From the NCBI GenBank assembly GCA_963821525.1, contig CAWGED010000005.1:160001-224000 (forward strand): 64,000 nt of DNA. The letters are read 5' to 3'. This document shows positions 10,643 to 41,402 of the stretch, piece after piece. How positions within the stretch are numbered: position 1 is the stretch's first letter; every line of letters begins with the position of its first letter. The notes under the pieces are model-generated. The model had not been told where the DNA came from. It did no database searches and was given only the letters and a program-made list of their open reading frames with translations. Made by a program: the position numbers and the translations under genes. The DNA is from an uncultured Gemmatimonadales bacterium. GTDB taxonomy: Bacteria; Gemmatimonadota; Gemmatimonadetes; Gemmatimonadales; GWC2-71-9.

Positions 10643-10716
10643 TGGGCCCGGCGCGATTCGAACGCGCGACCTCTTGCTCCGGAGGCAAGCGCTCTATCCA
10701 GCTGAGCTACGGACCC
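10643..10716 (-). tRNA. tRNA-Arg(CCG)
   Basis: Cloverleaf GGGTCCG...CGGGCCCA, anticodon loop CTCCGGA, TTCGAAT T-loop; no encoded CCA. Confidence 0.96.
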
Positions 10717-22838: not shown

Positions 22839-22913
22839 TCGGGGCGCCCGGATTTGAACCGGGGACCTCCTGCTCCCGAAGCAGGCGCGCTAACCGGACT
22901 GCGCTACGCCCCG
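22839..22913 (-). tRNA. tRNA-Pro(CGG)
   Basis: CGGGGCG...CGCCCCGA, anticodon loop TTCGGGA. Confidence 0.96.
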
Positions 22914-22917
22914 TCAG

Positions 22918-22991
22918 CGGGCCCTGAGGGACTCGAACCCCCAACCTTCTGATCCGTAGTCAGATGCTCTATCCAATTGAGCTAAGGGCCC
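22918..22991 (-). tRNA. tRNA-Arg(ACG)
   Basis: GGGCCCT...AGGGCCCG, loop CTACGGA. Confidence 0.96.
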
Positions 22992-22993
22992 GA

Positions 22994-23067
22994 TGGGCGG
23001 TACAAGACTCGAACTTGTGACCTCCACGATGTCAACGTGGCGCTCTAACCAACTGAGCTAACCGCCC
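22994..23067 (-). tRNA. tRNA-Val(GAC)
   Basis: GGGCGGT...ACCGCCCA, loop TTGACAT. Confidence 0.96.
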
Positions 23068-23072
23068 AAAAA

Positions 23073-23158
23073 GCGAGGCGGTCGAGGCGGACGGGGCGGT
23101 CGGGTCGATGCAGAACCGCTCTGACCGCCCTGACCGCCTTGACCGCCGTGACCGCCCT
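23073..23158. repeat. 9-mer stutter inverted repeat within the tRNA cluster
   Basis: GAGGCGGTC-like units facing four TGACCGCC(C/T/G) units. Confidence 0.7.
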
Positions 23159-23162
23159 GCAA

Positions 23163-23236
23163 TAGCGGGGGTGGGATTTGAACCCACGACCTCCGGGTTA
23201 TGAGCCCGGCGAGCTACCAGACTGCTCCACCCCGCG
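23163..23236 (-). tRNA. Initiator tRNA-fMet(CAT)
   Basis: C1:A72 mismatch, three G-C pairs in the anticodon stem, loop CTCATAA. Confidence 0.96.
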
Positions 23237-23283
23237 ACGGTTTCCTTTATAAGAGCCCCCGCGAGGGGCTCAGCAACCTTCAG

Positions 23284-23356
23284 AGCGGGAAACGGGACTC
23301 GAACCCGCGACCCCAACCTTGGCAAGGTTGTGCTCTACCAACTGAGCTATTCCCGC
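23284..23356 (-). tRNA. tRNA-Gly(GCC)
   Basis: GCGGGAA...TTCCCGCT, loop TTGCCAA. Confidence 0.96.
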
Positions 23357-23429
23357 GGTATCGAGGGCCAGAGTTTATCGGCTGGTCCCCCGGATTGCAA
23401 CACCGGGCTTGAACAGGCCCAAGCCACAA

Positions 23430-23502
23430 TGGAGGCGAGGGGGATCGAACCCCTGACCTCGTGAATGCCATTCACGCGCTCTCCCAACTGAGCTACGCCC
23501 CC
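23430..23502 (-). tRNA. tRNA-Ala(GGC)
   Basis: G3:U70 pair, loop ATGGCAT. Confidence 0.96.
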
Positions 23503-23555
23503 ATTATATTAGCGCGCCCGTTTCGCGCCCAAACGCCGGGGCGAGCGAGCACGGC

Positions 23556-33172: not shown

Positions 33173-34853
<1,681 letters not shown>

Positions 34854-34864
<11 letters not shown>

Positions 34865-35469
34865 GCTTCTGGTGTTTTTAGTAGCGGCAGGACTGGCGTC
34901 AACGGCAGGGACGTTGCCGGCGCAGACGCTCGGCACGCCAATTTTCATGGCGCCGACCCGCGCGTTTCAGAAACAGGAATTAGGTGGTTATATCTCGGAT
35001 CCCGGCGAAGGGGTGAGCATCGCGATCGAGGGCGAGTACCGGCGCTTCCATAAGACCTTCGACTGGGGTTTCCAGGGCGGTTACATGGACGCAGATGGTG
35101 GCGGCGACAACATCGGCGCGCTCGGTATTGATGCCCGCGCCGTCCTCGCCAAGCACAGCGAGGATTTCCCGCTCGACGCTGCGGTGACGGGTGGCTTTGG
35201 GGTTCTCTTTTCCGGCGGTGACGTCGGTTTCCTCATCCCGCTCGGCGTTTCGCTTGGGACGCCAGGTCCTGCTGGAAGAGTCCAAGATCAGCTTCACCCC
35301 CTACGTCCACCCGGTCATTGCTCCGGCCTTCGGCGACCTGTTCGACGACGCTCAGTTTGGTCTGGGTCTCGGCGTGGATATCACCCTCACCAAGACGTTC
35401 GATGTTCGGGTGAGCGGTGCGGTGGGGGACTACGAAGGAGTGGGGATCGGCGTAGCGTGGCATAAGTGA
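34854..35469 (+). CDS. Outer-membrane beta-barrel protein (frameshift ~35250)
   Basis: Signal peptide, alternating strands, C-terminal GIGVAWHK. Confidence 0.7.
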
Positions 35470-36297: not shown

Positions 36298-36675
36298 GTG
36301 AATTTCCGCCTGCATCTGCCCGCCCGGATCATTCTTGCCGCGGGACTGCTCCTCGTGTCGGGCTGCGCCAACACGTTCGACGCGACACGGCTTGGCGTGC
36401 CGGTGACCATGGCATCAGGTGGCGACGCCCCCGCACAGGGCACCTCGTTCAAGGTGACCTCGCACGCCGTTTACGGTTTCTGGGGCGTGGTCCAGTTCTC
36501 TGAACCGTCGCTCAAGAAGGCCTTGAGCAGCCAGCTGGTCGGGGGAGCCGGAGTAGCCGACCTCAAAATCAAGGTCCGCAGCAGGTTTCTCGATGTGATC
36601 ATTACCGGGCTTACGCTCGGGATTATCGTGCCGCGCTCGGTGACGTTTGAAGGCGTTGTAGTCCAGCCGAAGTAA
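36298..36675 (+). CDS. Small lipoprotein (Bor/TRL-like)
   Basis: Lipobox VSGC; YGFWGVV and ITGLTLGIIVPRSV. Confidence 0.65.
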   Translation: MNFRLHLPARIILAAGLLLVSGCANTFDATRLGVPVTMASGGDAPAQGTSFKVTSHAVYGFWGVVQFSEPSLKKALSSQLVGGAGVADLKIKVRSRFLDVIITGLTLGIIVPRSVTFEGVVVQPK

Positions 36676-37957
36676 CCAGCCCCTCAACCATTCGCGCGCA
36701 GCGCTCCGCCGCTCCGCGTCCCTGATCGACCACCGCCCGGGCGACCCGTCCCGCCGCGGCCCGGGCCGCTTCATCCGTGTGCCAGGCAGTCCACGCGCGG
36801 ACGAGGTCCGCGGCTCCGGTCGCGCCTCGCCGGATGGAAAGCCCGCCTCCCTGAGCCAATAGCCGGCTCGCGTCCAGGCTCTCGTGCCAGTGGGGGCCCA
36901 CGGTCACCGGAATCGCCCAGGCCGAGGGCTCCAGTACCGAATGGAGGCCCGCGGTGCCAAACGCGCCGCCCACATGAGCAACTTTTCCTGCTCCGTACAA
37001 CCTCGCGAGCCTTCCGGAGCGATCCTCGACCATGAGGGGTGCGGGTTTGACGGCGTCCGCCACAAGCACCGGGGGAGGCAGCCCGAGTTGAGCCGCGGTG
37101 CGTTCGATCCGGTGGAGCTGACGGGATGATGGTTCGTGAGGCACCAGGATGAGCCGGGAGTCGGGGTGCTGCCGTCGCAGTGTCCTGAAAGCGCTGAGCA
37201 GCACCTGATCGTCGGAGTGCCAGGTCGATCCCCCCACGATGGTCCATGCATCCGCACCCAGGGCTAGCAGGGGGTCTTCCGGTGACACCTCGGCGACCTT
37301 GGCCGCGACGCTGTCGTAGCGCGGGTCGCCCAGCGTCTGGATTCGATCCGCTTCCACGCCAAGTTGGACGAGCCGGTCGGCATCGTCTTCCGATGCCGTT
37401 CCGACGGCGTCCAGGACAGAGTACCCCGGATGGAGCAATGCGCGGATCGGCCACCGGAGCCTGCCGCTGTGCGGCCGCACTGTCCCCGTGATCAATCCGA
37501 GCTTGATGCCACGCTGATGCGCCCTGGTGGCGAGCTCGGGCCAGATATCGACTTTGGTGAAGATCAGGACGGTGGGGGAGAGGAGGTCGAGGAACTCGGT
37601 GACGTCGTGCACCCGGTCGTAGGGGAGGTATCCGGTAACGTCGGCGGGGAGCTTCGTCAGAAGCGGTTCAGCCGAGGGACTGAAACAGCTGAAACCGATC
37701 TGCCAATCGGGCTGCAGGCGGCGGAGCTCACGCATCACCGCCTCGGCCTGGCGTGCTTCTCCCACCGATGGCGCGTGAAACCAGACCAGCGGCTTTGCCA
37801 GGTCGCGGCTCGCAGCGGCCCATTGGCGGAATCCTTCGAGACTCGCTGCGCGCCCTTCATGCCCGAGCACGATCTTCCGGCTCCAGGCCCCCGCCACCGG
37901 TGCGAGTGCGGTGCCGAGCGTGATCGCGGCGCGATAGAACGGGTTGGTTTCGGTCAA
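36623..37957 (-). CDS. waaA: 3-deoxy-D-manno-octulosonate transferase
   Basis: WFHAPSVGE, YLPYD, DIWP, GSTW, LVPHEP, GLHSVLEP. Confidence 0.9.
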   Translation of the reverse strand: MTETNPFYRAAITLGTALAPVAGAWSRKIVLGHEGRAASLEGFRQWAAASRDLAKPLVWFHAPSVGEARQAEAVMRELRRLQPDWQIGFSCFSPSAEPLLTKLPADVTGYLPYDRVHDVTEFLDLLSPTVLIFTKVDIWPELATRAHQRGIKLGLITGTVRPHSGRLRWPIRALLHPGYSVLDAVGTASEDDADRLVQLGVEADRIQTLGDPRYDSVAAKVAEVSPEDPLLALGADAWTIVGGSTWHSDDQVLLSAFRTLRRQHPDSRLILVPHEPSSRQLHRIERTAAQLGLPPPVLVADAVKPAPLMVEDRSGRLARLYGAGKVAHVGGAFGTAGLHSVLEPSAWAIPVTVGPHWHESLDASRLLAQGGGLSIRRGATGAADLVRAWTAWHTDEAARAAAGRVARAVVDQGRGAAERCARMVEGLVTSAGLQRLQTSPSAAR

Positions 37958-38007: not shown

Positions 38008-38037
38008 TTGCGAGAGCGCCCTGCCTACTGCTAAACT
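38008..38037 (+). promoter_or_regulatory. Sigma70-type promoter with extended -10
   Basis: TTGCGA-18 bp-TAAACT, with TG one base upstream of the -10. Confidence 0.6.
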
Positions 38038-38043
38038 AAGTCC

Positions 38044-38245
38044 GTTCGCCCTATGTTCCACCCTGTGAGAGGAGGTGATCCATTGTCTAGTGAGAGTTGC
38101 ATCCGTAGCTCGAGCAGGGCAAGCGATCGCCTGAGCGAGTAGCGGCGTCGAAGTGACGCCGGAGGCCCGAGGCCGATCGTCTCGAGCTCGATGACAACCG
38201 ACCGCGCCATTCCGTGAACTCACGGGGTGGCGCGGCCTGCTTTTC
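38044..38245 (+). ncRNA. Candidate structured small RNA / sORF transcript with a 13-nt complement of the 16S 3' end
   Basis: Promoter; AGGAGGTGATCCA at 38070-38082; multi-segment hairpin 38096-38198; terminator 38202-38245; ORF 38053-38142 (29 aa). Confidence 0.55.
38202..38245 (+). terminator. Intrinsic terminator
   Basis: CCGCGCCATTCCGTG-AACT-CACGGGGTGGCGCGG followed by CCTGCTTTT. Confidence 0.65.
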
Positions 38246-38286
38246 CCTCCTCAGTCCTCAGTCCTTTCCCTCATTACTTTCTTTCC

Positions 38287-39012
38287 ATGCCCTCCTACTG
38301 GTCCACCACCCGGGCCCCCCGCTACAGCCTCACCTTCGCCTTCCCATTGCTGATCCTCTACGAGTTCATGGCCCGCGGCCTGTCCGGGCCGGACGGCTCG
38401 GGGATCCGGAATGGGGCCGATGTTCTTCTCAAGAGCCTGTTCGTCCTGCTGGGCGGAGGACATGGCCTGACGATCTTCGGGGTGCTTCTGCTGGGCACCG
38501 GCATAGTCCTGGTGTGGCGAGACCGGCGGAAGAACGGGCCCATCGAGGGCCGGTACTTCGTTGGGATGCTGGCGGAGTCCGTGGTCTACGCGGTGCTGTT
38601 CGGGGTGGTGACGAGCCTGCTCACGACGCTGGTGCTTCAGGGACCGAGACTCCTGGCGCTCGGTCCAATGGAGGGACAGGGCCTCGGCACCCAGATCATG
38701 GTTTCGCTGGGTGCCGGGATCTACGAGGAATTGCTGTTCCGGGTCCTGATTGTCGGGGCGCTGTCGCGGTTTGCGATCGGGGCCTTCCAGATGAAGCCCT
38801 TTCCGGCGGGAGTCTTCGCGACGCTTCTGGGAGCGGTCATCTTCGCGGCATTTCACTATGTCGGCCCGCTGGGCGACAGCTTCGAGCTGACCTCCTTTAC
38901 CTTCCGCACCATTGCCGGCGTGTTGCTGAGCGCCCTGTATCTCGTCCGGGGCTTCGGCGTCACGGCCTGGACCCACGCGTTGTACGATGTGTTGCTGACG
39001 GTGGCGCGGTAG
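38287..39012 (+). CDS. CPBP (CAAX/Abi) intramembrane metalloprotease
   Basis: YEELLFR, FAAFHY and HALYD motifs; multiple TM helices. Confidence 0.9.
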   Translation: MPSYWSTTRAPRYSLTFAFPLLILYEFMARGLSGPDGSGIRNGADVLLKSLFVLLGGGHGLTIFGVLLLGTGIVLVWRDRRKNGPIEGRYFVGMLAESVVYAVLFGVVTSLLTTLVLQGPRLLALGPMEGQGLGTQIMVSLGAGIYEELLFRVLIVGALSRFAIGAFQMKPFPAGVFATLLGAVIFAAFHYVGPLGDSFELTSFTFRTIAGVLLSALYLVRGFGVTAWTHALYDVLLTVAR

Positions 39013-39777: not shown

Positions 39778-40524
39778 TTAGTACCTCGACTGCCGCTTTC
39801 CCGTCGTGCGATCGAGCACGATCTTGCCACTGCGGATCGGGACATTCCAGTACCATTCTGCGTTGGGATCGTCGGCCACCCACGAACGAGCGTACACCCA
39901 CCAGTCGCCATTCGGCAACCGGATCGTCACCGAACCATCGGCGCCCGTCGTGTCTGGAATCGGCTGGCGTCCAACTACATTGTTGAGCCGGTCGACGATA
40001 CTGTCGTAGCCCTTATAGGTGCTATCTTGCCAACGGCTCATCAGTTCGCGGAGGCTGTCGATCGGCGCGGCCAGCGTGTCGCGAGCCTTCTTGAGCTGGA
40101 GTTGTGCCGCGTCGCGCCGCTTGGCGAAGTCGGCGAGCGAGTCGGAGAGGGTGTTGAAGTGCCGGTAAAGGAACGCGTAGTCCGGTGCCGACCGCGGCAT
40201 TGAATCGAGCCGGACCTTGAGGCGTGCGAGGGAATCCTGGGTGCGGGTCACGGCCAGCGACGCAGTGACGTAGGCGTGGAACGGCTTCTGGAAGGCATGG
40301 AACAGCGTATCCAGTCGCTGCTTGATCCGTGTCGGCGGGGTGGCCTTGGCCTCGAGCAGGGCGATGATGCTGTCCCGGTCGTAGGAGAGTACGATCAGTG
40401 GTAGGTTCGCCACCGGCGCGTCAACAGAATCGGGGCCGGGAATGGCGACGTCTACACGGACTTCCCGGCCGCCGCAGGCGGCCAGAACCAGAGCGAGCGT
40501 GATCAAACAGCGGGGCACAGGCAA
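39778..40524 (-). CDS. Hypothetical lipoprotein with coiled-coil insert
   Basis: Lipobox LAAC; C-terminal WWVYAR...EWYWNVP. Confidence 0.75.
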   Translation of the reverse strand: MPVPRCLITLALVLAACGGREVRVDVAIPGPDSVDAPVANLPLIVLSYDRDSIIALLEAKATPPTRIKQRLDTLFHAFQKPFHAYVTASLAVTRTQDSLARLKVRLDSMPRSAPDYAFLYRHFNTLSDSLADFAKRRDAAQLQLKKARDTLAAPIDSLRELMSRWQDSTYKGYDSIVDRLNNVVGRQPIPDTTGADGSVTIRLPNGDWWVYARSWVADDPNAEWYWNVPIRSGKIVLDRTTGKRQSRY

Positions 40525-40528
40525 CCGG

Positions 40529-41402
40529 GTGAGGGGGACCGAAGGGGTATTCGGGCCGGGGAAAGCTAGGCGAGTCCTGGGGTTGCTTCAACTCATCCCG
40601 GCGCTGCTCGTGGCACAGCAGAGCGGCGGAATCGACTCGCTCTTTCCCGCGCGCCCCACCGGGTACCTCACCGACGTTGCTGGCGTCGTGGATCAACCGT
40701 CGGCCTCCCGGATCGAAGACCTTGCCGCCCGCCTCCGGACCGCCACGGGCGCTGAGCTCGCCGTGGTTACCCTCCCCACTCAAGGACGCTACGAAACCTC
40801 CGAGCTTGCCCTGGCCATCGGTCGGGCTTGGGGCGTGGGGGCCAAGGCCGAGATCGGCGACCAGCGCCGCAACGCGGGCCTGGTACTCCTCGTCGTGCCG
40901 AAACGCGAAGGACAAAAGGGCGGGCTCTACCTCGCCACCGGGCGCGGAGTCGAGGGCATCGTCACCGATGCCACCGCCGGCCGGATTCTGGATCTCATGA
41001 TCCCGCAGCTCCGACAGGGTGAATACGGGCCCGGCGCTCGTCACCGGCACCGAGGCGATCGCAAGCACCGTCGCCAAGGGCTTCGGTGTCACCGACTCCG
41101 CCCTCACCGCGGCCGATCCCTTCAAGAGCTCCGGGGGCGGTGAGGGCGGCATTCCGGGCTGGGTGATTCCGGTTCTGTTCATCCTCGTGTTCTTTGTTCT
41201 GCCCATGTTGGCGCGCGCCGGTCGCGGCCGCGGTGGTCGAGGGGGTAGAGGCGGCCCCCCGATTTACTGGGGACCGGGCTGGGGTGGCGGTGGCTGGGGC
41301 GGTGGCTTTGGCGGTGGAGGTTTTGGTGGTGGTGGGGGAGGATTCGGCGGCTTTGGTGGTGGCGGCGGGTTCAGTGGTGGCGGTGCGGGAAGGAGCTTCT
41401 GA
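40529..41402 (+). CDS. TPM-domain protein with Gly-rich tail (frameshift ~41030; start uncertain)
   Basis: YLTDVAGVV, ELAVVT, WGVG, TGRGVEG, GGGGFSGGGAGRSF. Confidence 0.88.

Follow-up and report, generated by a model that had tools for sequence, protein, structure and literature searches.

Locus and predicted features

The window, by which we mean the whole stretch of 64,000 nucleotides that was analysed, contains a predicted RNA of about 200 nt that appears, from its sequence, to be a stand-alone gene lying between a waaA-like gene and a gene for a CPBP-type protease. The features of this locus are as follows.

36623-37957, minus strand: waaA-like Kdo transferase gene, the divergent neighbour, outside the RNA (Pfam PF04413, E 3.5e-37)
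38008-38037, plus strand: likely sigma-70-type promoter, with -35 TTGCGA at 38008-38013, an 18-nt spacer and an extended -10 TGnTAAACT (TGCTAAACT, 38029-38037)
38044-38066, plus strand: predicted 5' leader, C-rich, with GCCC at 38048-38051; probable start near 38044
38067-38082, plus strand: extended Shine-Dalgarno (SD) sequence containing AGGAGGTGATCCA at 38070-38082, pairing with the genome's own 16S 3' tail
38083-38142, plus strand: conserved small frame of 19 codons (MSSESCIRSSSRASDRLSE), with TTG start at 38083-38085 and TAG stop at 38140-38142
38074-38131, plus strand: predicted fold A (SD hidden), pairing 38074-38080 with 38125-38131, and the start codon plus codon 2 (38083-38088) with 38117-38122
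38096-38198, plus strand: fold B, a long hairpin of frame and 3' arm predicted with covariation, with an 8-nt bulge at 38115-38122 and a side hairpin at 38144-38161
38202-38245, plus strand: intrinsic-terminator-like hairpin of 15 pairs (38202-38235) with a short T run, from a terminator search
38287-39012, plus strand: CPBP/Rce1-like intramembrane protease gene, the other neighbour, outside the RNA (Pfam PF02517, E 1.3e-10)

The promoter, 16S-tail motif, TTG, TAG, hairpin arms and terminator of an initial annotation of this DNA are all present, letter for letter, where they had been placed. The candidate promoter matches the consensus at 4/6 and 4/6 positions, which is below the threshold of a consensus scan that called no promoters; among the 92 relatives described below, a promoter-like TAnnnT stands at the matching distance in 48 and a TTG or TTC in 59, counts for which no null was computed. 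DNA similarity with distant relatives sets in at about 38043, and the leader GCCC is found in 73 of the 92. The hairpin annotated as closing the unit was recovered by the terminator search, and a downstream hairpin of at least 7 pairs is called in 87 of 92 relatives under loose criteria, some of these terminator calls being evidently wrong. Because the terminator hairpin lies between the element and the next gene, the element does not encode a leader peptide of that gene. The element strand folds better than all of 200 shuffles (z -4.17), and NCBIfam matches to the waaA-like gene fall below their cut-offs.

Several other observations concern the surrounding DNA. A short tandem repeat of CTCAGTC units lies 3' of the terminator at 38250-38265; the 32 genome matches to a 14-mer of it fall in places that look intergenic, some of them as inverted pairs, and it is likely a genus-specific REP-like repeat. 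At 33173-34604 a gene that appears, from its sequence, to encode ATP synthase beta is split over three overlapping frames, and an outer-membrane-like gene (34854-35469) and a TPM-domain gene (40442-41402) also shift frame, all three probably reflecting insertion/deletion errors of assembly. A cluster of six tRNA genes occupies 22839-23503 and a single tRNA-Arg lies at 10643-10716; searches with Rfam at its cut-offs and with ARAGORN gave only seven tRNAs in the window.

Complementarity to the 16S rRNA tail

Measured against the genome's own 16S tail, taken from contig C5, the site forms 13 perfect pairs, or 16 contiguous pairs (38067-38082) with one G-U. The initial annotation regarded the 13-nt match as far longer than an ordinary SD; the match is indeed perfect, but its length is not beyond chance, since outside the rRNA gene the genome contains further long runs complementary to the tail, two of them 13 nt and one 14 nt long, and length alone is thus unremarkable. 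Among runs of at least 11 nt, this is the only one in the genome with a start codon at that spacing: TTG 38083 follows directly on the match, 7 nt behind AGGAGG, a spacing that was built into the pattern used to search for relatives. Of 387 candidate sites outside rDNA, it also binds the single-stranded tail most strongly, at -25.6 kcal/mol against -22.9 for the next, and it ranks third when the tail is lengthened to include the base of the last helix. When relatives are scored against this genome's tail, the match reaches at least 16 nt in 23 of 92 counting G-U pairs and in six without them; the conserved SD core spans the single-stranded tail, and two variable bases follow it (CA in 52 of 92). 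That the site is what is left of an rRNA gene on the opposite strand was considered and rejected: it resembles the genome's 16S in the tail only, and the rRNA gene of this genome is found at another place.

Distribution of the family

A pattern composed of the SD core, two bases and a start codon was scanned over 301 genomes of the phylum, with the reversed pattern as control. It is present in 149 of them, mostly as a single copy, and the control in two, so that the motif picked out by the initial annotation proves to be conserved. The figure of 149 is a lower bound for the family because variants outside the pattern exist, yet it includes some chance matches; the exact pattern is absent from about half of the genomes searched. 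Outside the window's class one of 17 genomes matched, at a locus (L158) that was dropped from the family. DNA similarity search matched 15 of 61 genomes, these being the genus and scattered relatives, some of them through the short downstream repeat only.

The sample used for comparison combines 90 of about 166 pattern matches with 14 loci from the similarity search, giving 98 distinct loci and 92 after removal of six, four with long frames (L158, L160, L169 and L203) and two whose short frames are unlike the family (L179 and L242). Five of the 92 had no terminator call, leaving 87, and five more with arms shorter than 35 nt were left out of the arm-pairing and fold-ranking tests, leaving 82. 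These relatives are kin, and statistically non-independent. One of the dropped loci, L203 (G101:C1:392485-393300), has its pattern match within a spacer of a repeat array that looks, by eye, to be of CRISPR type; the match is possibly due to chance, or the spacer was possibly acquired from an rre-like sequence.

A scan with one genome per species yielded at least 120 loci across phyla. Among the matches listed these are mostly from Alphaproteobacteria, with several from Gemmatimonadota, a few from Gammaproteobacteria, one Planctomycete and one Clostridia record, and 114 of 120 loci carry a frame of 10-27 codons (the pattern having fixed the start and the next bases). Three Gemmatimonadota records (L031, L035 and L042) carry the same subfamily sequence as the window copy. 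The same type of gene is seen in Gammaproteobacteria records L043, L099 and L102 and in Planctomycetaceae L049, and in L067 and L121 the same start is fused to longer frames with signal-peptide-like ends.

The neighbouring genes are not constant. Of 92 loci, 24 have a CPBP gene downstream and 28 have waaA upstream (60 of the fetched regions having flanks of only 400 bases), and at least ten loci with 1.5-kb flanks have neither, so the link to the protease is one of local gene order.

Transcription of the region

Part of the region is contained in 24 RNA-library runs, from which four, belonging to four studies, were chosen and viewed as contigs only, so that transcript ends are not defined. The sole contig of run X12 is 153 nt long and covers 38073-38221, free of differences. 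The contig of run X2 also spans the promoter, that of run X3 runs from waaA into CPBP, and run X6 has no contig on the element.

The small open reading frame

Start codons among the 98 loci are TTG in 84, GTG in 10 and ATG in four, and 94 of the 98 frames are 11-25 codons long, with subfamilies of about 20, 14 and 11 codons; the other two reading frames fall within the 11-25-codon range in 29 and 16 of 92. The initial annotation began its open reading frame at an ATG at 38053. That frame exists, but only 17 of 92 relatives have an in-frame ATG upstream, and leader ATGs are spread over all three frames (19/26/12); the conserved frame is thus that from TTG 38083 to TAG 38142.

The sequence of the encoded peptide is poorly conserved across relatives. 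When near neighbours are compared (51 distinct frames, 32 of 50 tree edges), substitutions are spread evenly over the three codon positions (42/47/50) and pN/pS is 0.71. In 64 copies the 'ASDR' residues, encoded GCA AGC/AAC GAT/GGT CGC, show one synonymous against 19 residue-changing variants. The segment that can pair with the SD, of the GAUCGCC type, is read in differing frames across the 11-, 14- and 20-codon subfamilies (65 versus 26 of 92), and the stop lies 16 or 18 nt past its first base in 71 of 92; a frameshifted copy, L239, retains a short frame. Selection would seem to act mainly on the RNA and on the presence of a short open frame, with the peptide constrained mainly via RNA pairing.

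Two alternative folds

In fold A, the GGUGAUC of the SD pairs with GAUCGCC (38125-38131), and the start codon and codon 2 pair with GGGCAA (38117-38122). A 7/7 partner for the SD is found inside the frame in 87 of 92 relatives compared with 6.7% of shuffles, and in a 32-row alignment 98.6% of cells are paired, with one-sided changes only, against 34-50% for slid controls. Fold A lacks two-sided covariation because the SD side is invariant. A looser pattern, run over the same 301 genomes for two-sided covariation, was too noisy, with its control matching about as often; of 13 variant sites that were fetched, four were family members and nine unlike members, and in L248, the sole family member found with a variant SD, the pairing of fold A is kept by G-U only. 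Among the 114 cross-phylum loci with short frames, the longest pairing of SD to frame is barely above that of shuffles, and the cost of opening the SD is higher in 83 of 113, a signal for fold A that is weak by the first measure and moderate by the second.

Fold B corresponds to the five-segment hairpin of the initial annotation, and was found unprompted by RNAalifold. Among 32 rows picked for good pairing, 13 of its 15 pairs are compensatory and its covariation score is 0.51 versus 0.28, a score that none of 500 shuffles reach and slid controls (at most 0.13) do not approach. Among unselected copies, 12-13 of 13 fold B pairs form in 43 of 64 compared with nine of 640 shuffles, and the length of the bulge has a sharp optimum at 8 nt (64 relatives). 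In 82 loci, a frame pairs better with its own 3' arm than with the arms of other loci, at a median of -43.3 versus -31.6 kcal/mol. Fold B begins at widely varying distances from the start codon, mostly between +4 and +23, which does not support a constant placement of this fold at the ribosome entrance.

Since both folds use GAUCGCC, they are mutually exclusive. The hairpin first annotated is conserved and covarying, but it is not the lowest-energy fold of the window copy; that is fold A, which is predicted to lie 3-7 kcal/mol below fold B (-96.4 vs -89.6). Fold A is the best fold of 17 of 82 relatives, and in 37 its energy is no more than 3 kcal/mol above the minimum. Opening the ribosome-binding site takes a median of 11.5 kcal/mol when the nascent piece is folded, against 8.3 for the full body; when the arm of the latter is shuffled the median is 10.9. 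The native arm gives a lower opening cost than the shuffled one in 72 of 87 relatives, and in the window copy the 3' arm is without effect (11.9 vs 12.1 shuffled). In these models the RNA likely flips between a fold A that hides the SD and a fold B that frees it. We also note that the leader GCCC (38048-38051) co-occurs with the GGGC of the bulge (38117-38120), in 61 of 64 copies versus 11 of 28, a comparison confounded by lineage; a third pairing or a pseudoknot within fold B is possible.

Type I toxin mRNAs such as hok and aapA offer a parallel, in that the nascent RNA forms a metastable hairpin over the SD, which is later superseded by a long-range fold; the frame described here, by contrast, is hydrophilic and variable, and encodes no membrane toxin.

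Relationship to known RNAs

The best Rfam match of the locus, which is in turn the best match to that family in its genome, is RF01867 (CC2171), at 24.4 bits against a gathering cut-off of 75 (E 0.0028, genome-wide E 0.0064), and by this score the element is not a member. The RF01867 consensus shares the SD core, the start and a UCU with the window locus, whereas only the 5' core and the terminator of the locus align and the Rfam class is that of an sRNA; CC2171 has been validated by Northern blot in Methylorubrum (bioRxiv 10.1101/2022.01.24.477521). As for 6S RNA, SRP RNA, tmRNA and riboswitches, which the initial annotation had named for comparison, none was found at the Rfam cut-off, by ARAGORN or among the three weak matches (E up to 10).

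The element is real and conserved, and its kind has already been published, as the rre-type small mRNAs rreB and rreR (Hahn et al., PMC5711450); a view of it as a novel kind of RNA is not supported. The resemblance is extensive. Like rreB and rreR, it is a unit of similar size, here a putative stand-alone one, with a short frame, no conserved gene context and a long match to the 16S tail reaching a non-ATG start (PMC5711450). Its SD and start are predicted to be enclosed by a hairpin that leaves a short 5' toehold, here fold A, which is backed by prediction and one-sided conservation; for rreB, too, a hairpin is predicted around the SD, with a seed of 5 nt (PMC5711450). The rreB cloning primer (PMC5711450 supplement) matches the start region of scan locus L126, and the 14-codon rreB-like scan loci carry the same GATCGCC in frame. 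With 19 codons, the frame described here is comparable to the published ones of about 14-18 codons (PMC5711450).

The differences lie in the extent of the match, the start and the phylum. The rre definition asks for complementarity to the 16S 3' end over 16 nt or more, usually including the first base of a GTG start, with ATG noted in Azospirillum, and rreB and rreR have matches of 16-17 nt (PMC5711450); here there are 13 perfect pairs, or 16 with G-U, and the start is TTG, as in 84 of 98 loci, which places the start codon outside the 16S match, unlike in rreB and rreR. The 19 residues of the window frame are unrelated to the published peptides, and the phylum is another one, the accessible text of the rre paper reporting Alphaproteobacteria only (PMC5711450). 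Nor does that text contain a second, covarying fold with an 8-nt bulge. In every sequence test run, the element appears to behave like rreB except for the GTG start and the perfect 16-nt match. What is added here is a phylum-wide sample, the covarying second fold and a case against selection at the level of the peptide.

Extended SD motifs in Staphylococcus aureus likewise lengthen the SD pairing towards weak start codons and assist them, but they consist of two extra pairs on ordinary mRNAs, where they aid initiation, with no mini-gene and no alternative folds in the accessible text (PMC13009471). No follow-up work on rreB or RreR beyond Hahn et al. was found by a literature search covering few subscription journals. 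A literature search by DNA motif gave only 16S-primer papers among the matches listed, and one combining Gemmatimonas or 'ribosome-regulated' with the rre class gave nothing further among the matches listed.

Discussion

We propose that the element is an rre-type RNA that docks on the 30S subunit, that its fold and lifetime follow ribosome loading, and that it is rarely translated, its peptide being incidental; the evidence leaves us about evenly divided between belief and doubt. As the frame is transcribed, GAUCGCC and GGGCAA are predicted to fold back (fold A) onto the start codon and the SD, of which just a few 5' bases would stay exposed as a toehold. By analogy with rreB, a 30S subunit would seed on this toehold and the 16S tail would displace GAUCGCC, itself a mimic of the tail. 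The freed frame could then pair with the 3' arm (fold B), by prediction repaying part of the opening cost and holding the bound state. With an over-long SD and a weak start, initiation would be slow and the RNA would thus sit mostly on the 30S; again as suggested by rreB, an occasional round of translation would unwind fold B and lead to decay or refolding. Through docking, rare translation and refolding, the fold and lifetime of the RNA would come to follow the supply of free, initiating ribosomes. The selected trait would be the act of initiating and stopping, the peptide likely being a by-product. For rreB, full-length RNA co-sediments with 30S subunits and is weakly translated, and a change of its GUG to UAG removes start-codon-dependent decay, raising the half-life from 10 to 37 min (PMC5711450).

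The element could instead be a true small mRNA whose product is the 19-residue peptide, with the long SD, weak start and folds keeping output low until it is released, a reading we find rather doubtful. Frame, start and length are conserved, the pN/pS ratio is slightly below one, translation of RreB fusions and conservation of the peptides within clades are reported (PMC5711450), and extended SDs do aid weak starts in S. aureus (PMC13009471). Against this, the conserved residues, on codons almost without synonymous change, are those whose bases are paired in fold A, the subfamilies read the GAUCGCC-type segment in different frames, and RreB and RreR are dissimilar to each other and unstructured in solution (PMC5711450). 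A peptide made from the ATG at 38053, cut at a GG site by the adjacent CPBP protease, is highly implausible even though the ATG frame is present here and in the genus and CPBP is the next gene in some loci: the GG codons are the SD itself, and with the ATG in frame in so few relatives and CPBP an inconstant neighbour, many loci having others, the processing idea put forward by the initial annotation fails.

That annotation also offered a ribosome-binding or sequestering sRNA. A small transcript with a super-SD does fit the published 30S-binding class, whereas simple sequestration is argued against by rreB, of which a 20-fold overproduction had no effect on growth (PMC5711450). In a related form, the RNA would serve in ribosome storage or protection, covering the 16S tail on 30S subunits that are idle and thereby shielding it or keeping the subunits inactive under stress. 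This would suit a site that binds the single-stranded tail more strongly than any other in the genome, a conserved core that covers just that tail before the sequence begins to vary, and the co-sedimentation of full-length rreB, but ribosomes far exceed rreB (PMC5711450) and a pure holder would need no conserved short open frame with a stop; we consider this form unlikely. A trans-acting base-pairing RNA gated by ribosome loading, with fold B showing its 8-nt bulge to an RNA or protein, is distinctly unlikely. The bulge length is fixed and GGGCAA is nearly invariant in 64 copies, and the frame region of rreB gives rise to a stable piece of 60 nt that is free of ribosomes (PMC5711450); yet conservation of the bulge is already accounted for by start-codon pairing in fold A, the bulge possibly also pairs with the leader GCCC, and the 11- and 14-codon subfamilies lack it.

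A broader version of the docking model is that rre genes are cross-phylum bistable ribosome sensors, in which a mimic of the 16S tail shuts the site, a captured 30S flips the fold to display the conserved bulge, and the RNA is reset or destroyed by being translated once, so that the supply of free 30S is read out and the peptide is irrelevant; we offer this as a speculation that is rather unlikely to be right. As the covarying second fold excludes the SD-hiding hairpin, mutants of the proposed switch can be rationally designed.

The rre genes have a single published description, and the variant presented here extends the class to another phylum, with a frame that is apparently kept for being translated and not for its peptide. 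If the switch is real, it would point to a widespread RNA device that senses or buffers idle small subunits.
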